From the NCBI GenBank assembly GCA_050015375.1, contig JBEKBN010000006.1:454-64453 (forward strand): DNA of 64,000 nt, given 5' to 3'. The translations under genes were made by a program, and so were the position numbers. The notes below the pieces were generated by a model that was given only the letters and a program-made list of their open reading frames with translations, was not told the origin of the DNA and ran no database searches. Of this stretch, positions 654 to 58,509 are shown in pieces (position 1 is the stretch's first letter; the number at the start of each line of letters is the position of its first letter). The DNA comes from Minisyncoccia bacterium (GTDB lineage: Bacteria > Patescibacteriota > Minisyncoccia > 2-02-FULL-40-12 > IGHO2-01-FULL-4-A).

Positions 654-1214
654 ATGGATAATATCACACCACAACCCCAGACCCAACACAGAAATAGTTT
701 CGGCGGAAATCGCGGCGGATTTGGCGACCGCGGACCAAGACGCGACAATCGCCCGCCTCGGGAAAAATCCGAATTCGAGACGGCGGTTCTTGATATTGCC
801 CGCGTAACCCGCGTTACCAAAGGCGGTAAACGATTCAGTTTTCGGGCGACGGTGGCGCTTGGCGACGGCAAAGGCCGAGTTGGCGTCGGCGTAGCCCAGG
901 GCATCGATGTCGCCCAGTCAATGGCCAAGGCGTCTCATCAGGCCAAAAAGAACATGATCACGGTCAACATCGTCAAAGAGACCATTTCCCATGAAATAAC
1001 CTGCAAATACAACAGCGCCGTGGTCATGCTCAAACCGGCCCGTCTGGGAAATGGCGTCAAAGCCGGCGGTCCGGTCAGGGTCATTGCCAAACTTGCCGGC
1101 ATCGCCAACATCACCGCCAAATTAATTGAACGAACCGGCAACAAGATCAATATTGCCCGGGCGACGATCGAGGCCCTAAAAAATTTAAAAATCAAAAATC
1201 AAAATGCAAAATGA
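654..1214 (+). CDS. rpsE: 30S ribosomal protein S5, with a roughly 40-aa Gly/Arg-rich N-terminal extension
   Basis: Core VTKGGKRFSFRATVALGDGKGRVGVG...MLKPARLGNGVKAGGPVR is typical S5. The N-terminus carries GGNRGGFGDRGPRRDNRPPRE. Confidence 0.9.
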   Translation: MDNITPQPQTQHRNSFGGNRGGFGDRGPRRDNRPPREKSEFETAVLDIARVTRVTKGGKRFSFRATVALGDGKGRVGVGVAQGIDVAQSMAKASHQAKKNMITVNIVKETISHEITCKYNSAVVMLKPARLGNGVKAGGPVRVIAKLAGIANITAKLIERTGNKINIARATIEALKNLKIKNQNAK

Positions 1215-5848: not shown

Positions 5849-6574
5849 ATGTATTTATCCGTCATTATTCCCGCCTACAACGAAGAAAAAAGGATCGGCA
5901 AGACGCTTTTGGCGGTGGATGAATATCTATCGGGACAAAAATACGATTCTGAGATTATCGTGGTGGATAATAATTCAAAGGACAAAACGGCCGATATTGT
6001 CAATAATTTAAAATTTAAAATTTATAATTTAAAATTAATTTCCCAGCCAATTCAAGGCAAAGGCAATGCCGTAGCCAAAGGAATGCTTGAAGCATGGGGC
6101 GATTATCGGGTTTTCATGGATGCCGACAATTCCACCTCCATAGATCATATTGAAAAAATGTGGCCGTTCATTTCGACCGGTTACGATGTTGTCATAGGAT
6201 CGCTCGCGGTCAAAGGCGCAAAGATTCTCCAAGGCGGAGCCGAACCGTGGTGGCGAGTGCTTTTGGGGAAACTCGGCAACAAATGGATCCAGATCTTCGC
6301 GGTCTGGGGAATAAACGATACCCAAAGAGGTTTCAAAATGTTCACGGCCAGAGCGACGGAAAAAATATTTCCGAAATTGACAATATTTGGCTGGGGATTT
6401 GATGTCGAAGTTTTGGCTTTAGCAAAAAAATACGGATACAAAATAAAAGAAATTCCGATAATCTGGGATAACGACCCAAATTCAACGGTGAATTTCTGGG
6501 CCTATCCACAAGTTTTAATGCAAACCGTAAAAGTCAGATGGAATCTATTGATCGGGAAGTATAATAGCCATTAG
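5849..6574 (+). CDS. family 2 glycosyltransferase (dolichyl/polyprenyl-phosphate sugar transferase-like)
   Basis: N-terminus SVIIPAYNEEKRIGKTL...IVVDNNSKDKT...DADNS carries GT2 DxD-type motifs. Confidence 0.8.
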   Translation: MYLSVIIPAYNEEKRIGKTLLAVDEYLSGQKYDSEIIVVDNNSKDKTADIVNNLKFKIYNLKLISQPIQGKGNAVAKGMLEAWGDYRVFMDADNSTSIDHIEKMWPFISTGYDVVIGSLAVKGAKILQGGAEPWWRVLLGKLGNKWIQIFAVWGINDTQRGFKMFTARATEKIFPKLTIFGWGFDVEVLALAKKYGYKIKEIPIIWDNDPNSTVNFWAYPQVLMQTVKVRWNLLIGKYNSH

Positions 6575-6638
6575 TTATTAGCCATTAGTTTTTAGAAAAA
6601 TCCTAAGTTCTAATGGTTAAGTCCTAATTACTAACTTG
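6568..6638. repeat. tract of ten heptanucleotide units (CCATTAG/TTATTAG...CTAATGG/CTAATTA/CTAACTT) filling the GT2-galT intergenic region
   Basis: Strict 7-nt periodicity with TAG/TAA anchors, running from the GT2 stop to the galT TTG start. The same CTAACTTG junction occurs at ftsE. Confidence 0.6.
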
Positions 6639-7648: not shown

Positions 7649-8260
7649 ATGTCAATATTTACCGCGATCATTAACTGGGCTTTGGCGATCATCGGCGCGA
7701 CTGGATATTTGGGCTTGTTTTTGGCGATGATGTTGGAAAGCGCCGGCGTTCCGATCCCCTCAGAAGTCGTTTTGCCATTCGCCGGTTTTTTGGCGGCTTC
7801 GGGGAAATTCAGTTTGATATTGGTGATCGTAGTGGCCACTACCGCCAACTTGACCGGCGCGCTCATTTTTTTCACTATTGGATATTTTGGCGGCACGAGA
7901 TTTTTACGAAAATATGGACACTTTTTATTTATACGCGAAAAAGAAATTTCGAGAATGGAGCGTTGGCTTGACCGCCACGGCGGCAAGGTCGCTTTTTTCT
8001 CAAGGATGTTGCCCGGCGTCAGGACCTACAGCTCATTGGTGATAGGTTCGGGCAAGTCAAGATTGCGGACGTTTATCGGTTATACGCTTCTGGGCTCGGT
8101 CATCTGGAATTCCATCTGGGCCTATCTCGGATATTACACCGGAAACCGCTGGGAAATATTCGGACCCTACGTCAGAAAATTTGATTATTTAATTCTGGCA
8201 GCGATAATCATTTATATCATTGCTTTTTTTGCCAGACATTTCGGTAGAAAAAATAAATGA
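7649..8260 (+). CDS. DedA/SNARE-associated family membrane protein
   Basis: Multi-TM protein with a DedA-type motif (GLFLAMMLESAGVPIPSEVVLPFAGFLAASG). Confidence 0.75.
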   Translation: MSIFTAIINWALAIIGATGYLGLFLAMMLESAGVPIPSEVVLPFAGFLAASGKFSLILVIVVATTANLTGALIFFTIGYFGGTRFLRKYGHFLFIREKEISRMERWLDRHGGKVAFFSRMLPGVRTYSSLVIGSGKSRLRTFIGYTLLGSVIWNSIWAYLGYYTGNRWEIFGPYVRKFDYLILAAIIIYIIAFFARHFGRKNK

Positions 8261-9015
8261 AGACATTAGTAGCAAACTGGAAAATGAATCCCCAAAAATT
8301 GGCTGAAGCCGAGGAACTTTTTGAATACACCATCGCCGAATCGGCCAAATATCCGAACGTCAAAACGATAATTTGTCCGCCGTTCGTCTTTATTGAGGAA
8401 TTGTCCAAATTTCTACAAACTACAAACTACAAACTACAAACTAGCATCGGTTCCCAAAATATTTTTTGGGAATCCAAAGGAGCATATACCGGTGAGATTT
8501 CCACCGAGATGCTGAAAAATTTCGGCGTTAGCCATGTTTTGGTCGGCCATTCCGACCGGCGATATGTCATCGGCGAAACGGACGAGGAAATTAATAAAAA
8601 AATAAAAGCCGCGCTTTTGACCGATATAACCCCGGTGCTTCTAGTTGGCGAGAGAGAAGGCGAGAACCGCGAAGAAATTTTGAGGAAACAATTATCCGCT
8701 GACCTGGCCGGCGTTTCGGCGCCCCATTTGGGGAAGATCCTTTTTGCCTACGAACCGGTCTGGGCAATAAGCACAAATCCGAATGCAAAACCCGATACGC
8801 CCGAAAACACTTTGAAGGCGATCACATTTATAAATAATCTTCTTGCTATCAGCTATAAACTACCAGCCATAAGCTGTCTCTATGGCGGTTCGGTCAATGA
8901 AAAAAATATCGTTGATTTTCTCAAACATCCGGAAATCTCCGGCGCCGTCGTCGGCGGAGCCAGTTTGCGAAAAGAAGAATTTGGAAAAATGTTAAACTTA
9001 GTTTCAACAATTTAA
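8257..9015 (+). CDS. tpiA: triosephosphate isomerase
   Basis: ANWKMNP...VGHSDRRYVIGETDEEI...GGAS motifs. Overlaps the dedA stop (ATGA). Contains an in-frame heptamer-repeat insertion. Confidence 0.9.
   Translation: MKTLVANWKMNPQKLAEAEELFEYTIAESAKYPNVKTIICPPFVFIEELSKFLQTTNYKLQTSIGSQNIFWESKGAYTGEISTEMLKNFGVSHVLVGHSDRRYVIGETDEEINKKIKAALLTDITPVLLVGEREGENREEILRKQLSADLAGVSAPHLGKILFAYEPVWAISTNPNAKPDTPENTLKAITFINNLLAISYKLPAISCLYGGSVNEKNIVDFLKHPEISGAVVGGASLRKEEFGKMLNLVSTI
8413..8447. repeat. (CTACAAA)x4 heptamer tract inside tpiA, in frame, encoding LQTTNYKLQT
   Basis: Four perfect CTACAAA units plus a degenerate fifth (CTAGCAT). They map to a loop that is shorter in B. subtilis TPI. Confidence 0.7.
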
Positions 9016-9078
9016 TCCAATTTTATCATATAGATATATTTCCACGATCGTGGGAATAGGTCTATATCCAAATTTCAA

Positions 9079-10248
9079 ATGATTCGTTACATTTCCGAAT
9101 TGAATAGAGAACAGTTGAACGGCAAAAAAGTTTTATTGCGGGTTGATTTTAATGTGGCGCTATCGCAACTTCCGGCTGTCAACAACCAGCCGCCGACTTT
9201 CAAAATTGCCGAGGGTTTCAGGATAAAGTCGCACAAAGAAACAATTGATTATCTGACCGGCAATGACGCGAAAGTGATGCTGGTGGCGCACATTTCGCAG
9301 ATAAACAGTTTTTTGCCGATCGTGGAAAATATCGGAGAAATTCTCGGCCAGACGCTGACCCTAGTGCCGTTGGAGCATATTTCAGATTCTGGAAAACTTT
9401 TTAGTGCCAGTTCAGTTCTTTTACTGGACAATATCCGCCAAGATTCGGGCGAAGAAAAGAATAGCGACGAATTGGCGAATAAACTGGTTCAGGGCTTTGA
9501 CTTGTATGTCAACGACGCTTTTTCGGTCAGTCATCGCAAGCACGCTTCGGTGTCGGCGGTGGCCGGAAAACTCCCGGCTTATGGCGGATTGCTGATAAAA
9601 AAAGAGATCGAGGGATTATCAAAAGCGCTCAACGCGCCGGTTCAAGGGAAAACCGTGATTTTGGGTGGCGCCAAAATCGCCACTAAGTTGCCGGTCATTG
9701 AGAATTTTTTGGACAAAGCGGAGAAAATACTAGTCGGCGGAGCGATTGCCAACAATTTTTTCAAGGCAAATGGAATTAATGTCGGCGCGTCCTTGGTTGA
9801 CGATGGCACTTTGAGTATAAAAAACCTGGATATGAATAAAATTGTTTTGCCGGTTGACGCGTTGGTTTCCGACGATAGAACCGGAAATGGTAATGTCAGA
9901 TTTGTTGACCTGAAAAAACCCGACATCGCGGCTCAAGAATCGATACTCGACATCGGCAAAGAAAGTATAGCTAACTTCACTGAGATCATCGGCCTTTCAA
10001 AAATGGTGGTTTGGAATGGACCGATGGGTTTGAACGAGGTTGAACGATTTAAAAACGGAACCAACGCTGTGGGCGTTGCGGTTTCAAAAGTCGGCTATTC
10101 TGTCATTGGCGGCGGCGACACGGTGGCGGCGCTTTCTGAAGAGATAAGATCAAAATTCACTTTTGTTTCCACCGGCGGGGGAGCAATGCTTGATTTTCTT
10201 GCCGGCAAACCCATGCCCGGACTTGTTGCTTTGGGCTATCAGGAGTAA
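9079..10248 (+). CDS. pgk: phosphoglycerate kinase
   Basis: LLRVDFNV near the N-terminus and GGGDTVAA / STGGGA near the C-terminus. Confidence 0.9.
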   Translation: MIRYISELNREQLNGKKVLLRVDFNVALSQLPAVNNQPPTFKIAEGFRIKSHKETIDYLTGNDAKVMLVAHISQINSFLPIVENIGEILGQTLTLVPLEHISDSGKLFSASSVLLLDNIRQDSGEEKNSDELANKLVQGFDLYVNDAFSVSHRKHASVSAVAGKLPAYGGLLIKKEIEGLSKALNAPVQGKTVILGGAKIATKLPVIENFLDKAEKILVGGAIANNFFKANGINVGASLVDDGTLSIKNLDMNKIVLPVDALVSDDRTGNGNVRFVDLKKPDIAAQESILDIGKESIANFTEIIGLSKMVVWNGPMGLNEVERFKNGTNAVGVAVSKVGYSVIGGGDTVAALSEEIRSKFTFVSTGGGAMLDFLAGKPMPGLVALGYQE

Positions 10249-10259
10249 GCTGAATTACC

Positions 10260-10694
10260 ATGAAGAAACTCATTATTCATTCTGACGGCGGGTCAAGGGG
10301 AAATCCTGGAGACGCAGCGATCGGCGTGGTCATTGAAGAAATCGGCGGCACGCTCAAGAAACAATACGGCGAATATATCGGCCGGGCGACGAACAACGAA
10401 GCCGAATATCAGGCGGCGATATTCGGTTTAAAAAAATTAAAACAACTTATCGGCAAAGAAGCCATCGAAACGGCGAAAGTCGAGGTCTGGGTGGACAGCG
10501 AACTCTTAGAACGCCAGATCAACGGATTTTTCAAAATTGAAGATACCAATATCCAACCGTTATTTTTGCAATTGTGGAATCTGAGAATTGATTATGGCGA
10601 CATTAAGTTCAAACACGTTCCGCGCGAGCGAAACCGCGAAGCCGATAAGATGGTCAATGCGACACTTGACAAGGAATTAAATAAGCTGATATGA
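10260..10694 (+). CDS. rnhA: ribonuclease HI
   Basis: SDGGSRGNPG...NNEAEYQAAI...VDSELL...HVPRERNREADK are RNase H catalytic motifs. Confidence 0.8.
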   Translation: MKKLIIHSDGGSRGNPGDAAIGVVIEEIGGTLKKQYGEYIGRATNNEAEYQAAIFGLKKLKQLIGKEAIETAKVEVWVDSELLERQINGFFKIEDTNIQPLFLQLWNLRIDYGDIKFKHVPRERNREADKMVNATLDKELNKLI

Positions 10695-12311: not shown

Positions 12312-12875
12312 ATGTCTTGGCAAATCTGTAAGCCGAATTCTGTTCCCCCACTTTTTGAGTTGCCCCAAAAGTGGGGGAGGCGATCATTTATCTGGTCCCT
12401 CGGTTACCCTCGGGATCTAGCGTCTCTTCCCCCACTTTTTAAGTTGCCCTAAAAGTGGGGGACACGGACTTGCACCGGGCAGGGTTTAGCGCGCATCCAT
12501 GTCGCCATGGAGCGGTCCCGTTCGGGGCCTTTTCACCCGTGATCCGCTTGCGCGGACTCGGAATAGTTTCTGTGCCACTTTCCCTGAATTTTGATAAATA
12601 ACTTTTGTCTTAAGAACAAAAACTATCCATCTTATATTCGGTGGCCATTAGCCACTGCCCTGCTTACGCAATCACCAACTGCTAATCTCTAATCTCAAAT
12701 AAAACCATTGGCGATCTTAGTTAACAATTAATGATTGCGTAAGCGGTGTTCGGACTTTCCTCCCTAAAACATTTTGCTTTCGCAAAATGTTCGGGCGATC
12801 AATTCGCAAAGCGAATTGATTTAGCCCCAAATCCAATAAGAATTCGTAGAGTAATCACCCGATTTACCAGGACTT
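12312..12875 (-). ncRNA. rnpB: RNase P RNA (bacterial type A-like) with an extended helix and twin hairpin insertions
   Basis: Reverse complement carries GGGAGGAAAGUCCGAAC (P4 5'), CAGGGCAG, AGUGGCACAGAAAC, CGCGCAAGCGGAUCACGGGUGAAAAGG, CUAAACCCUGCCCGGUGCAAG and ACAGAAUUCGGCUUACAG (J/P4 3'). These align with E. coli M1 RNA. The 5' and 3' ends are approximate. Confidence 0.8.
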
Positions 12876-23630: not shown

Positions 23631-25460
23631 ATGCAAAACATCCGCAATTTTTGTATAATTGCTCACATAGACCATGGCAAAAGCACCTTAGCCGACCGGC
23701 TTTTAGAATTGACGGGCACAATTGAAAAGCGCAAAATGCACGAACAATTTCTGGACCAGATGGAATTGGAGCGTGAAAGAGGGATTACCATAAAACTCCA
23801 ACCCGTCCGCATGCAATACGGCGAATATATTTTGAATTTAATAGATACGCCGGGCCATGTGGATTTCACCTACGAAGTTTCTCGTTCGCTGGCGGCGGTG
23901 GAGGGTGCGATTTTACTTGTGGATGCCGCCAAAGGCGTTCAAGCCCAGACACTGGCCAATTTGCATTTGGCGCAAAGACAGAATTTGGTCATTATTCCGG
24001 TCATCAACAAAATTGATCTACCCAATGCCAGAGTGGCCGAAGCCGAAGAAGAAATTTCCAATTTGCTTGCCGTTGAACCGGACGAAATTATCAAGATTTC
24101 CGCCAAGACCGGTGAAGGCGTGGAGAAAGTTCTTGAAGCGGTTGTCGAAAAAATTCCCCCGCCATCTACTCACTACTCACTACCAACTACCAACTATCCT
24201 CGCGCCCTGATTTTTGATTCCGCTTTTGACGCTTACAAAGGCGTTGTCGCTTATGTCAGGATTTTTGACGGCAACTTCCGGGCCGGAGACAAAATTAAAC
24301 TTTTCGCTTCCAAAGCCGAAGCCGAGATAATCGAAGTTGGTCAGTTTAAACCCGCCTTGAGCAAAACCGATTCTATCGGCGAAGGTGAGATCGGCTATAT
24401 CGCCACCGGTTTGAAAAATCCCGGCGATGTCCGCGTTGGTGATACGGTTTTCTCTACAAACTATAAACCACAAACTACAAACTTTTCACCCCTTCCCGGC
24501 TACAAAGAACCGATGCCGGTGGTTTTCGCCAGTTTTTTTCCGGAAAAAGGGGAAGATTATGATCTGCTGAAAGACGCGCTGGGAAAACTGAAATTGACCG
24601 ATGCCTCGCTGACTTATGAACCGGAATCTTCACCAGCCCTCGGCCGGGGTTTTCGCCTTGGCTTTCTGGGTATGCTCCACACCGAGATCATCAGTGAGCG
24701 GTTGCGCCGGGAATTCAAATTGTCGCTGATAATTTCCTCGCCGTCGGTGGAATATCACATTTTGAAAAAGAACGGCCAAGAAATTCCCATCCGTTCGGCA
24801 TCAGAGATGCCCAATCCGAGTTATATTGATAAAATTTTCGAACCGACGGTTGTGCTGGAATTGTTGAGCCCATCTGAATATCTCGGTTCATTGATGAAAC
24901 TTCTTTCCGAAATGCGAAGCTCTTATCTAGCCACTGATTATTTGACCAAGGAAATCGTGATTTTAAAATACAAAGTCCCGCTGACTGAAATTGTGACCGA
25001 TTTTTATGACAAACTGAAAAGCGTCAGTTCCGGTTACGCTTCGATGAGTTATTCACCCCCACACTCATTAGATGAGTGTGGGGGCAAGCAGGATGGCTAT
25101 GAGGAATCTGATCTGGTTCGGCTGGATATTTTGGTGGCCGGGGATTTGGTTGAACCGTTTTCGAGAATGGTTCCGAGATCGCGCGTTCATGACGAAGGCA
25201 AGAGAATTGTCGAGAAGTTGAAGAAAATAATTCCGCGGCAATGGTTCGCGGTGGCGATCCAAGCGGCCATCGGCGGGAAAATAATCGCTCGGGAAACCAT
25301 CAGCGCTTTGCGAAAAGATGTTACCGGTTATCTCTACGGCGGGGATATTACCCGCAAGAAAAAATTATTGGAGAAGCAAAAGAGGGGGAAGGCGAGGATG
25401 AAAGAGGAAGGCAAGGTGAATATTCCGCAGAATGTGTTTCTGGAGATGCTGAAAAAGTAG
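23631..25460 (+). CDS. lepA: elongation factor 4 (LepA)
   Basis: IRNFCIIAHIDHGKSTLADRLL...DTPGHVDF and a C-terminus matching E. coli LepA. Contains three in-frame repeat insertions. Confidence 0.92.
   Translation: MQNIRNFCIIAHIDHGKSTLADRLLELTGTIEKRKMHEQFLDQMELERERGITIKLQPVRMQYGEYILNLIDTPGHVDFTYEVSRSLAAVEGAILLVDAAKGVQAQTLANLHLAQRQNLVIIPVINKIDLPNARVAEAEEEISNLLAVEPDEIIKISAKTGEGVEKVLEAVVEKIPPPSTHYSLPTTNYPRALIFDSAFDAYKGVVAYVRIFDGNFRAGDKIKLFASKAEAEIIEVGQFKPALSKTDSIGEGEIGYIATGLKNPGDVRVGDTVFSTNYKPQTTNFSPLPGYKEPMPVVFASFFPEKGEDYDLLKDALGKLKLTDASLTYEPESSPALGRGFRLGFLGMLHTEIISERLRREFKLSLIISSPSVEYHILKKNGQEIPIRSASEMPNPSYIDKIFEPTVVLELLSPSEYLGSLMKLLSEMRSSYLATDYLTKEIVILKYKVPLTEIVTDFYDKLKSVSSGYASMSYSPPHSLDECGGKQDGYEESDLVRLDILVAGDLVEPFSRMVPRSRVHDEGKRIVEKLKKIIPRQWFAVAIQAAIGGKIIARETISALRKDVTGYLYGGDITRKKKLLEKQKRGKARMKEEGKVNIPQNVFLEMLKK
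24166..24200. repeat. heptamer tract (CTACTCA x2, CTACCAA x2, CTATCCT) in frame inside lepA, encoding STHYSLPTTNYP
   Basis: Five 7-nt units with a CTA anchor. Absent from E. coli LepA at the equivalent PAPQGDPDAPLQ position. Confidence 0.65.
24454..24488. repeat. heptamer tract (CTACAAA/CTATAAA/CCACAAA/CTACAAA) in frame inside lepA, encoding TNYKPQTTNF
   Basis: Same unit as the tpiA tract. About 7 extra residues relative to E. coli LepA. Confidence 0.65.
25056..25084. repeat. palindromic element CCCCCACACTCA-TTAGA-TGAGTGTGGGGG (copy 2) inserted in frame in lepA, encoding SPPHSLDECGG
   Basis: Perfect 12-bp arms with a 5-nt loop. Adds about 11 residues relative to E. coli LepA between GYAS and SDLV. 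Confidence 0.75.
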
Positions 25461-46683: not shown

Positions 46684-47758
46684 ATGACTACTTTGCGTGA
46701 AGAATTGAATAGTATGCAAGATAAGTGCCGTGCCGTGCGGCACCGTCTTTGACCTAGGCGAATCGCGAGAAAAAATCAAGCAAATTGAAACCGAAATGCA
46801 AGCGCCCGGTTTTTGGAATAACAACGAAAAAGCCGGTAAAGCGTCAAAAGAATTAAATGATCTAAAAACCGAAGTCGAATTCTGGGAAACAACGATGCTG
46901 GAACTGGACGAATTCGGAAAGATGTCCGACGAGGAAATTCAGAAAAAAGAAATCGAAATCCGAGCTTTCAAAAAGAATTTCGACAAAGAATACATAAAAA
47001 TATTTTTGTCAGGAAAATACGACAAAGGCAATGCCCTTTTGTATGTCTATTCCGGCGCCGGCGGCGTGGACGCCCAGGATTGGGCTTCAATGCTTTTGCG
47101 GATGTATCAGAAATACGCCGAGCGCGAGGGTTATGGCTGGACGCTTTTGCAACAGTCCTTTGGCGAGCAGAACGGCACCAAAAGCGCCGTCGCCGAGATC
47201 ACCGGCCGCTGGGCTTACGGAAAATTGCGGGGCGAGGCCGGTGTTCATCGTTTGGTCAGGATTTCACCCTTCTCGGCCAAGTCGTTGCGCCACACATCGT
47301 TCGCTCTCGTGGACGTGCTTCCCGAGATTGAAGATGTTAAAATTAATATTGACCCGAAAGATCTGCGAATTGATACTTTTCGGTCATCGGGACCGGGCGG
47401 ACAGAATGTCAACAAACTGGAAACGGCCGTCAGGATCACCCATATTCCGACGAATCTGACCGTTGCCGTCCAATCGGAGCGTTCTCAAGCCCAGAACAAA
47501 GCCAAAGCCATGACGCTCTTGCAATCCCGTCTGGCGCAATTGATGGAAGAGAAAAAAATTCAGGAAATTTCCGAGCTTCGGCTTGACACCAAAGACAGCG
47601 CCATTGAATGGGGTAGTCAGATCCGTTCCTATGTCATTCATCCTTACAAGATGGTCAAAGACCACCGGACCGAGGTTGAGACGACGCAGGTTGACAAGGT
47701 TCTGGAAGGGGAGTTGGATGAATTCATAGAAAAAGAGTTGGTGGTTGGTAGGTCGTAG
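46684..47758 (+). CDS. prfB: peptide chain release factor 2, with a programmed +1 frameshift: join(46684..46749,46751..47758)
   Basis: Frame 0 reads MTTLREELNSMQDKCRAVRHRL then CTT TGA C (46747-46753). The +1 frame continues DLGESREKIKQ...SGPGGQNVNK...GSQIRSYV. Confidence 0.88.
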
Positions 47759-47780
47759 TTTGTAGATTGGAACGCCAAAA

Positions 47781-47816
47781 CTACTTACTACTCACTACTT
47801 ACTACAAACTAACTTG
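47781..47816. repeat. heptamer tract (CTACTTA/CTACTCA/CTACTTA/CTACAAA/CTAACTT) abutting the ftsE TTG start
   Basis: Five 7-nt CTA-anchored units ending CTAACTTG, the same junction as at the galT TTG start. Confidence 0.6.
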
Positions 47817-57427: not shown

Positions 57428-58509
57428 AGAAGCACAAAAAATATTTTTCAATTCCCATTATCCTTTTCTTGATCCTTTTGGTTTTAACCTTGGCTTGGAA
57501 TTTGCTTTCCATCAGGCCGGTTCCCGAAAAAGTAAATTACGGCGTTTCGTTCAGCGTTTTTCATTCCAACGAACTCAATCTGGATTGGAAAAAAACATAT
57601 TTGGCGATCTTAGACGATCTTAAGGTCAGGAACTTGCGGCTTACCGCTCATTGGCCGCTGACCGAGCCGGCCGACGGCAAATACGATTTCTCAGAATTGG
57701 ATTTTCAGATAAACGAAGCCGATAAACGCGGCGCGACCTATATTCTGGCCGTCGGCCGGCGCCTGCCCGGCTGGCCGGAATGCCATGTGCCGGATTGGGT
57801 TATGAATCAAGAATCACAAATCACGAATCAAGGTGAAAAAACTGATTTTGAGAACCAAAAGTTATTGGAATATATTCAGACGACCGTTGAGCGTTACAAA
57901 AATTCCCCCGGTCTGAAATATTGGCAAGTCGAGAATGAACCGTTCCTAGGATTTTTCGGCCGTTCGAGCTGCCAATTGACCGACGAGAATTTTTTCAAAC
58001 AGGAGATCGCTCTTGTCCATAAACTCGATCCGACCCATCCGGTTCTGGCGACCGACAGCGGCGAGTTCGGCTATTGGTATCAGGCCTACCGCGACGGTGA
58101 TGTTTTCGGCACCTCCTTGTATCTGTATGTTTGGTGGCGGGCGCTTGGCATCGGCCCCTTGCGTTATCCCATCGGGCCGTCGTTTTTCCGAGTGAAGCAA
58201 AATGTGGTTGATTTTATCGGTTGTGTCTTGGGCGATTCACCCTCACACTCAATTTTTGAGTGTGAGGGCAAGCCGACAATTCTCATTGAACTGGAAGCCG
58301 AGCCCTGGCTTTTAACACCGATCGTTGACGCGCCGATGGCGACTCTCCTTGACCGGATGGGGATTGATAAATTCGAAACCATGATCCAAACCGCCAAAGA
58401 AGCCGGTTTTGGCGACCAATATCTCTGGGGCGCCGAGTGGTGGTATTGGATGGAACAAAATGGCCATCCGGAATTTTGGCAGGCGGCGAAGCAACTTTTT
58501 AACCAATAA
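57424..58509 (+). CDS. glycoside hydrolase, clan GH-A (GH5/GH113-like)
   Basis: Signal/TM N-terminus, then YWQVENEPF (acid/base NEP) and LIELEAEPW (nucleophile Glu). The family is not resolved. Confidence 0.55.
   Translation: MKKHKKYFSIPIILFLILLVLTLAWNLLSIRPVPEKVNYGVSFSVFHSNELNLDWKKTYLAILDDLKVRNLRLTAHWPLTEPADGKYDFSELDFQINEADKRGATYILAVGRRLPGWPECHVPDWVMNQESQITNQGEKTDFENQKLLEYIQTTVERYKNSPGLKYWQVENEPFLGFFGRSSCQLTDENFFKQEIALVHKLDPTHPVLATDSGEFGYWYQAYRDGDVFGTSLYLYVWWRALGIGPLRYPIGPSFFRVKQNVVDFIGCVLGDSPSHSIFECEGKPTILIELEAEPWLLTPIVDAPMATLLDRMGIDKFETMIQTAKEAGFGDQYLWGAEWWYWMEQNGHPEFWQAAKQLFNQ
58240..58268. repeat. palindromic element variant CCCTCACACTCA-ATTTT-TGAGTGTGAGGG (copy 4), in frame in the GH-A hydrolase gene
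   Basis: Both arms carry a compensatory change (C to T paired with G to A), so pairing is preserved. Encodes SPSHSIFECEGKP. Confidence 0.75.

Follow-up and report, generated by a model that had tools for sequence, protein, structure and literature searches.

Heptanucleotide tracts inside tpiA and other housekeeping genes of a Minisyncoccia bacterium and its relatives: a probable class of frame-constrained microsatellites

Why does the gene of a conserved enzyme carry a perfect tandem repeat of 7 nt, and what keeps it there? We asked this for tpiA, the triose-phosphate isomerase (TPI) gene found in 64,000 nt of DNA from a Minisyncoccia bacterium (GenBank assembly GCA_050015375.1, contig JBEKBN010000006.1, positions 454 to 64,453 of the forward strand). 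This whole stretch is called the window, and positions are counted from its first letter. The tpiA open reading frame (ORF; 8257..9015, + strand, 252 aa) was recognized from its frame and by homology: a 100% identical protein annotated as TPI is present in a Minisyncoccia metagenome-assembled genome (MAG), the Pfam family PF00121 is present in all homologs of the window protein, and solved TPI structures match it with an E value of 4e-45. The phylum of this MAG, Minisyncoccota, is taken here to be the Patescibacteria, or Candidate Phyla Radiation (CPR). At 8413-8443, the gene contains 4.4 perfect copies of CTACAAA, that is 31 nt reading CTACAAACTACAAACTACAAACTACAAACTA, for which Tandem Repeats Finder gave a period of 7, 4.4 copies, 100% matches and a score of 62. 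The unit that closes the perfect run, CTAGCAT (8441-8447), agrees with CTACAAA at 4 of 7 positions; with this degenerate unit included, the tract spans 8413..8447 on the + strand. We propose, with a probability of about 0.6, that it is a frame-constrained heptanucleotide microsatellite of about 4.4 units, renewed by slippage and belonging to a clade-wide class, and that the peptide it encodes is a tolerated passenger.

The tract begins 156 nt into the ORF, in frame. Its codons, CTA CAA ACT ACA AAC TAC AAA CTA CAA ACT, give LQTTNYKLQT (residues L53 to T62, followed by S), and the heptapeptide LQTTNYK is simply CTACAAA translated through all three frames. The reverse complement of the unit, TTTGTAG, contains TAG; since it puts a stop codon in every frame, a CTACAAA tract of at least three units is possible in genes in one orientation only. 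The original prediction, which described four perfect units and a degenerate one encoding LQTTNYKLQT, therefore matches both the sequence and the repeat-finding program.

The same tract was found at the same codons in three related loci, which we label L001, L002 and L003. Over the 31 nt, L001 has 2 mismatches, L002 has 1 and L003 has none, and the corresponding TPI proteins are 87%, 62% and 67% identical in amino acids to that of the window. Synonymous sites beside the tract differ among the four lineages, and the whole-gene nucleotide identity between the window and L003 is 71%. The tract has the same length in all four, and an independent ENA assembly of the window lineage is identical over 5.6 kb, tract included. 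The tpiA tract is thus old and positionally fixed, and not private or recent. A recent insertion private to this genome is contradicted by orthologs of as little as 62% amino-acid identity, in which the 31-nt tract occupies the same site, and the suggestion that the tract would change in steps of 7 nt, or act as a switch, finds equal lengths in four lineages and in the independent assembly. The case that would have undone the original prediction, orthologs sharing TNYKLQT from non-repetitive DNA, was not encountered: the peptide shared by the orthologs is encoded by repeats. One Logan contig, SRR7028199_195902 (L208), is identical to the window and starts at 8449, 6 nt past the tract; either the 31-mer is common to other loci or genomes in that sample, or the tract length is polymorphic.

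The placement of the tract in the protein was looked at in an AlphaFold2 model of the window TPI, built from 46 homologs (mean pLDDT, the predicted local distance difference test, of 91), with secondary structure assigned by DSSP. The model contains a helix at residues 43-54 and a strand at 62-66, and the mean pLDDT of residues 51-60 is 77. The tract is accordingly placed by the model at the predicted end of helix a2 and in the a2-b3 loop, hereafter loop 1. In a TIM barrel, the loops that lead from helix to strand face away from the catalytic side, and by this general topology the tract would lie on the non-catalytic face. Loop 1 of the window TPI is 4 residues longer than that of the solved bacterial TPIs 4y8f and 1b9b, and 7 residues longer than that of short-loop relatives. 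The claim of about 4-5 extra residues relative to B. subtilis TPI agrees with the 4-residue gap, which was measured against 4y8f and 1b9b and not against the B. subtilis protein. A second tract, overlooked by the original prediction, is present in the same gene at 8845..8877 (+). It is degenerate (GCTATCA GCTATAA ACTACCA GCCATAA GCTGT; unit identity of 0.69 within the tract) and encodes AISYKLPAISC. In the model it corresponds to residues 197-206, where helix a6 ends and the a6-b7 loop (loop 2) follows; this loop is of usual length compared with the solved TPIs.

Length differences at these loops come in blocks of three units. Loop-1 length, taken from CPP to GxQ, is bimodal among TPI homologs, with 15 residues (n=18) or 22 residues (n=22), and filled and empty alleles differ by 21 nt of repeat alone. 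At the nucleotide level, loop 1 of L204 reads AAA TTA CTAAACC CTG TT and that of L205 reads AAA CTA CTAAACC CTATACC CCATACC CTAAACC CTG TT, so that L205 exceeds L204 by exactly 21 nt and the flanks are shared. As the inner units are unlike the outer ones, a deletion between units 1 and 4 is the best reading of this difference, the one case in which a direction could be read. In loop 2, L209 has two units and L210 five. No 7- or 14-nt length difference was seen among the alleles compared, and no frameshifted TPI allele among the loci examined. The rule that only blocks of three units preserve the frame is borne out by these three comparisons, all of which concern relatives and not the tpiA tract of the window itself. 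The further idea that intragenic tracts would total a multiple of 21 nt has to be dropped: tracts are about 31 nt long (4.4 units), and 21 nt is the difference between alleles. Independently of the heptamers, the TPIs of L209 (P0081) and of P0086 carry about 16 extra residues (HPVKSS.AGAKQFD) after the TGEI motif, in the post-b3 loop; this loop contributes to the dimer interface of canonical TPIs.

The same loops are written with different heptamers in different lineages. In the protein alignment of homologs, both TPI loops carry three-frame read-outs of differing units: LQTTNYK corresponds to CTACAAA, FQFPISN to TTCCAAT, LSAISYQ to CTATCAG, KLKIENW/C to AAATTGA with its stop codon mutated, and LETRNH/YK to CTAGAAA with its TAG mutated. 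For loop 2, in-register DNA of 81 orthologs was compared after anchor-based extraction, and PGK was treated likewise. The loop-2 orthologs carry four in-register heptamers, for example ACTACAA, ACTACCA or AGTTTCA, each four times; further units are GCGTCCA and AATACTC, also four times each, and ACTATAA/ACTAAAA. Within a tract, the identity between units is 0.55 at period 7 versus 0.23-0.27 at periods 5, 6 and 8-10, and it is 0.28-0.30 in control segments taken upstream. Between orthologs, it is 0.32 when units at the same position are compared and 0.30 when the positions differ. Units that resemble their neighbours within a tract, and not their counterparts in orthologs, are what concerted evolution or repeated renewal would be expected to leave in the sequences. 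Between the window and L001, no 33-nt stretch of the gene body is less conserved than the second tpiA tract (45% versus 81% identity overall), and between L003 and L204 identity drops sharply at both TPI loops (about 45-55% versus a background of 80-90%). A similar turnover is seen in pgk, where the site around residue 100 of the protein is made, according to the lineage, of CTACCAA, CTACAAA/CCACAAA, AACTGGA, CTGGAAC or GTCAGTT units.

Period 7 is in clear excess in this DNA. The window contains 4-8 period-7 tracts depending on the threshold, compared with 0-0.2 in dinucleotide-preserving shuffles, and other periods give 0-3 tracts versus 8 at period 7 (the harmonic 14 excepted). The 14-mer CTACAAACTACAAA occurs 9 times with at most 2 mismatches, versus 0.33 expected, and CTA-anchored triple repeats occur 7 times at a spacing of 7 and never at spacings of 5, 6 or 8-11. 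A chance origin was rejected on the basis of the shuffles and of the comparison with other periods. In a larger set of 517 kb of related Parcubacteria DNA, made of the window and 83 TPI loci, we counted 99 period-7 tracts versus 3 in shuffles, about a 30-fold excess, with at most 13 tracts at each of the other periods (again except the harmonic 14). Three-quarters of them (75/99) lie deep in ORFs of at least 120 aa, and their lengths are mostly 27-33 nt. In other CPR loci, 63 period-7 tracts were found versus at most 10 for other periods, and CPR loci around seeded tracts contain about 20 further period-7 tracts per 100 kb. The length distribution of perfect period-7 runs has a second mode at 28-33 nt, with a cliff above it.

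Arrays of CTACAAA itself were then scanned with a minimum of 3.4 units and one genome per species. They were detected at 120 loci at least, of which at least 44 come from many CPR classes. Among the matches listed, 30 of 46 CPR tracts are deep in ORFs and the longest is 34 nt, whereas most arrays of other phyla lie away from long ORFs, and their length goes up to 79 nt. These non-CPR arrays belong, among the same matches, to Chitinophagales and Saprospiraceae (Bacteroidota), to cyanobacteria (Calothrix, Rivularia, Coleofasciculus and Prochloron), to Ca. Parabeggiatoa and other Proteobacteria, to Megasphaera and to Clostridiales. As for base composition, the sense strand of 79 intragenic tracts has 43% A, 23% C, 9% G and 25% T. 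When all stop-free heptamers were enumerated at background composition, base usage was nearly flat, so that stop-codon avoidance was rejected as the source of this A-rich, G-poor bias; selection for hydrophilic loop residues may contribute to it. Finally, tracts at different sites of the same contig share units more often than tracts of different contigs do (19% versus 8%, permutation p ~0.001). CTACAAA-seeded loci were not used in this test since their ascertainment confounds it, and base composition may contribute to the sharing.

Several other period-7 tracts are present in the window. In lepA (ORF 23631-25460, identified by Pfam), a first tract at 24166..24196 (+) is made of two CTACTCA and two CTACCAA units and encodes STHYSLPTTN after the IPPP motif, and a second at 24454..24483 (+), CTACAAA CTATAAA CCACAAA CTACAAA CT, encodes STNYKPQTTN. 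In the alignment to the solved structure of T. thermophilus EF4, both are loop insertions of 4 residues. LepA has a third insertion at residues ~470-490, of 11 residues and non-periodic (yspphsldecggkqdgyeesdl versus ye...qagyrpgdl in T. thermophilus EF4). An intergenic hairpin at 47737..47811 (+) has period-7 sequence in both arms, one (47737-47765) rich in G/T and the other (47780-47811) rich in A/C; its predicted RNA fold reaches -30.2 kcal/mol (z -3.7), with helices of 4-5 bp spaced by 7 nt. It takes in the 3' end of a release-factor gene and adjoins the ORF of an ABC-transporter ATPase. A second intergenic hairpin, at 6565..6635 (+), flanked by a GT2 glycosyltransferase gene on one side and a galT-like gene on the other, has TTAG/CTAA-anchored period-7 arms that also fold into short helices at 7-nt spacing (z -2.6). 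Both hairpins abut start codons. Other tracts, absent from the list of the original prediction, were found at 6005..6036 (+), an AATTTAA-type tract in the GT2 glycosyltransferase ORF that encodes NLKFKIYNLK, with a similar tract (VSDLKFKIENLK) located about as far into a 250-aa ORF of L131; at 1180..1213 (+), an AAAAATC/AAAATGC tract in the 3' end of rpsE, with rplO just downstream; and at 57804..57830 (+), a GAATCAA-type tract inside a glycoside-hydrolase-like ORF.

The original prediction had listed related tracts twice in lepA, in two intergenic leaders and in an RNase P helix. The lepA tracts and the intergenic ones, as hairpin arms, were found again. The RNase P one, a CTAATCT tract of 2.7 units at 12682..12700 (+), is weak and its placement in a helix is not supported: it lies on the strand opposite to the RNA (gene at 12313-12810, minus strand), in a 132-nt insertion, and is mostly unpaired in the minimum-free-energy fold. 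This RNase P RNA is itself unusual, with 498 nt versus 367 nt in the model. The 132-nt insertion, at the apparent P9 hairpin, forms three separate hairpins when folded (z -3.9), and about 10 extra nt are found in the P3 loop and about 19 near the 3' end.

Paired intergenic period-7 tracts, about 10-70 nt apart, are frequent in related contigs (L183 5799-5870; L124 2050-2115; L140 2609-2689; L168 2471-2596; L131 3041-3113). The pair of L183 comes right after tpiA, with a G/T-rich arm followed by an A/C-rich arm, and resembles the window hairpin at 47737-47811. Around tpiA in the window, most of the 63-nt gap between its stop codon and the start of pgk is occupied by a near-perfect palindrome (9028-9067; 20-nt arms, 85% complementary, no spacer), which may form a hairpin acting on the tpiA-pgk transcript. 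Directly downstream of pgk, a small gene with an RNase H/RVT_3 domain (window region 10260-10694; L206 5112-5546) is conserved in L002.

Returning to the tpiA tract, several simple accounts of it were rejected. A role as a hairpin arm was discarded, as no inverted or complementary partner was found within 8000-9100 of the window. G-quadruplex (G4) formation was discarded because CTACAAA has no G and TTTGTAG only isolated ones. An assembly artefact does not fit a tract that is shorter than a read, in frame, identical in the independent ENA assembly and present in orthologs from unrelated samples. A repeat selected at the protein level does not fit either, since the 7-nt periodicity runs across frames and periods of 6 and 9 are absent at the same sites. 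As for the hallmarks of miniature inverted-repeat transposable elements or repetitive extragenic palindromes, the tract was found with no inverted partner, and no obvious flanking sequence is common to different tracts. The reverse strand, (TTTGTAG)n, presumably fits the (UAG-N4)3 pattern bound by HutP, and some bacterial primases initiate at the trinucleotide CTA.

We favour the following account. Replication slippage in a 7-nt register, or a nascent strand transiently misaligned in it, would make and renew the tracts, and selection on the reading frame would discard all gains and losses except those of three units. A tract could cycle from 4.4 to 1.4 units, the survivor mutating and then re-expanding, or from 4.4 to 7.4 units and back, and such cycles would keep the tract homogeneous while its unit drifts. 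It is through such contraction and re-expansion that one loop could come to spell CTACAAA, CTACCAA, GTTTCAA or GCGTCCA according to the lineage. Genes would retain only the stop-free orientation, and in CPR the tracts would persist chiefly within genes, in loops able to accommodate additional residues. The tract peptide would then not be a functional module, nor the tract an on/off switch for tpiA.

Several observations weigh against this account. Plain slippage leaves unexplained the sense-strand composition (A 43%, G 9%), the 28-33 nt mode and its cliff, which are seen even outside genes, the occurrence of CTACAAA arrays across CPR, Bacteroidota, cyanobacteria, Ca. Parabeggiatoa and Megasphaera, and the sharing of units within contigs. 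For a tract to arise in a presumably essential gene, 21 nt must be gained at once or frameshifted intermediates passed through; no instance of either was seen. Orthologs with and without a tract have the same length at TPI loop 2 and in PGK, and a simple insertion account fails there for this reason. Homogenisation would also be episodic rather than continuous, because L165, L204 and L136 keep inherited differences between units at loop 2 (KTYNLKPIT); some tracts would thus age as ordinary coding sequence. Moreover, L003 and L204 are 80-90% identical across the VTT-domain gene and tpiA, and their pgk falls to 40-57% over ~150 nt (residues ~60-110), heptamer tract included. This mosaic block suggests the recombinational import of a tract-bearing segment. 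Finally, the data are metagenome assemblies throughout.

Part of what slippage leaves unexplained would be accounted for by a selected cis-element in RNA or DNA, to which the coding sequence accommodates. The tracts would then serve as a platform for a single-strand reader moving in steps of ~7 nt, such as a cold-shock or S1-like protein, or as partners of G/U-rich heptamer RNAs. The 31 nt kept perfectly between genes that are 71% identical overall, the A-rich and G-poor sense strand beyond what stop avoidance gives, the uniform size of about four units and the intergenic relatives in hairpins abutting start codons are all consistent with it. A post-transcriptional role has been proposed for the intergenic heptamers of Beggiatoaceae and Nostoc (PMC4679880; bioRxiv 10.1101/2022.06.06.494920), and CspB is described, in work cited in PMC4679880, as binding one heptamer per protein. 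Yet the unit sequence is unlike between orthologs (0.32, about background), so that a sequence-specific reader would need to change with each lineage and site. Many orthologs, with a 15-residue loop 1, have no tract, tracts occupy many unrelated positions in many kinds of genes, and that of tpiA has no complementary partner nearby. We therefore regard a selected element as unlikely.

Equally doubtful, in our opinion, is a dedicated or templated writer that is indifferent to the unit, measures about 30 nt and inserts or overwrites patches of ~31 nt. CPR, cyanobacteria, Beggiatoaceae and Bacteroidota would share it by horizontal transfer. It could be a mobile element of very small size, or else a patch-synthesizing enzyme (reverse transcriptase, primase or polymerase) that copies a 7-nt template over and over. 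Within CPR, patches would be overwritten in place, even in essential genes, and selection would keep the outcomes that preserve the frame, lack stops and are hydrophilic. The size of ~31 nt in both coding and non-coding CPR contexts, with a maximum of 34 nt versus 79 nt elsewhere among the matches listed, speaks for such a ruler, as do the second mode at 28-33 nt and the hairpin arms of equal size. Units recur in distant phyla and within a genome, loop 2 swaps ~31 nt with its overall length unchanged when relatives of 80-90% identity elsewhere are compared, and other heptamers were independently reported to favour four units (PMC4692102). The tpiA tract, for its part, lacks conserved flanks, is not bordered by target-site duplications and has no inverted partner. 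Between filled and empty alleles the difference is 21 nt instead of 31, and for the documented case a deletion between two units is the best reading. The register maintained across lineages with different units fits evolution in place better, and no candidate enzyme was found. In related contigs, CCCTAAA/CCCTATA units were also observed (L194 560-592 and 691-726; L201 7082-7114). CCCTAAA is the C-rich strand of the plant-type telomere repeat, a likeness that bears on the idea of templated repeat addition and is probably a coincidence.

Lastly, a contingency locus in which 7-nt slippage toggles tpiA is very improbable: heptanucleotide repeats act so elsewhere, as do the 7-bp repeats of H. influenzae hmw (PMC8262952), and a perfect 4.4-unit tract is slippage-prone in principle, but the hosts are genes of central metabolism and translation (tpiA, pgk, lepA), the length is fixed in four lineages and in the independent assembly, no non-triplet change was seen between lineages in the assemblies, and TPI alleles differ by three units without any frameshifted one among the loci examined.

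How do these tracts compare with known heptanucleotide repeats, which have been noted for decades, for the most part as curiosities of intergenic DNA, with no consensus on how they arise or what they do? In cyanobacteria, heptamers of the short tandemly repeated repetitive (STRR) type were reportedly described by Mazel in 1990. The cyanobacterial and Nostoc heptamers occur in 3-4 contiguous copies, and TTCAAAA-type units are also found in L151; they are intergenic or promoter-proximal, unlike the intragenic CPR tracts. In Nostoc, contiguous heptamers lie near start codons, and a regulatory role was proposed and not established (bioRxiv 10.1101/2022.06.06.494920). In marine Beggiatoaceae, cyanobacteria and some Bacteroidetes, TAACTGA is directly repeated in 2-6 copies, mostly between genes and a few nt upstream of start codons, with one unit dominating a genome (MacGregor 2015, PMC4679880). 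A constraint of stop codons on orientation was noted there too (PMC4679880). The phyla that bear TAACTGA are the same unusual set as those with (CTACAAA)n arrays, and its reverse translation, LSVISYQ, resembles LSAISYQ and AISYK of the TPI loops. With respect to the TAACTGA/STRR type, the tpiA tract thus agrees in phylum set and differs in its intragenic placement.

The tpiA tract has the attributes of a heptanucleotide simple sequence repeat (SSR), namely uninterrupted copies, a period-7 excess and, in relatives, copy changes by whole units. According to Mrazek 2007 as reported in PMC4679880 and PMC4692102, heptanucleotides are the most abundant class of long SSRs in most genomes examined, and polymerase slippage at a 7-nt contact was proposed for them. 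As far as this indirect account goes, the long SSRs of Mrazek, Guo and Shah (2007) resemble the CPR tracts in their head-to-tail 7-nt units and their over-representation versus other unit lengths. The CPR tracts differ from what is reported of that survey, which was made before CPR genomes were available, since three-quarters of them are in ORFs, at orthologous sites, with unit turnover and steps of three units. The GGGNATC repeats of Xanthomonas and Nostoc are G-rich, form G-quadruplexes and occur less often than expected inside coding sequence; they clearly favour four units, which was ascribed to G4 formation (Rehm et al. 2015, PMC4692102). Like the CPR tracts, they vary in length and sequence among close relatives at conserved sites. 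The CPR tracts, with 9% G in the sense strand, are incapable of forming G4 and have the same four-unit preference, which argues against G4 formation as its general cause. Phase-variable loci such as H. influenzae hmw are likewise made of slippable short tandem repeats. They are long and length-variable (PMC8262952), belong to surface or virulence genes and alter expression, whereas the CPR tracts have a fixed length and frame-preserving changes and are hosted by tpiA, pgk, lepA, rpsE and glycosyltransferase genes rather than by surface, virulence or restriction-modification genes. No published description of heptamer repeats in CPR/Patescibacteria was found in a literature coverage that was incomplete, which is weak evidence of novelty; the intragenic, orthologous and unit-switching heptamers of CPR housekeeping genes look undescribed.

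These tracts offer a natural experiment in which one site has been replayed in dozens of lineages, and from which rates of birth, homogenisation and loss are measurable in metagenomes. There are practical consequences as well: low-complexity peptides such as TTNYKLQ, FQFPISN and KLKIENW can mislead alignments and the inference of homology, and the tracts may break short-read assemblies, as the Logan contig that begins just past the tract may illustrate. By extrapolation, their density would correspond to about 150-200 tracts per megabase genome. If our account is right, a mutational process, and not selection at the protein level, would write part of conserved enzymes in the reduced genomes of CPR bacteria.

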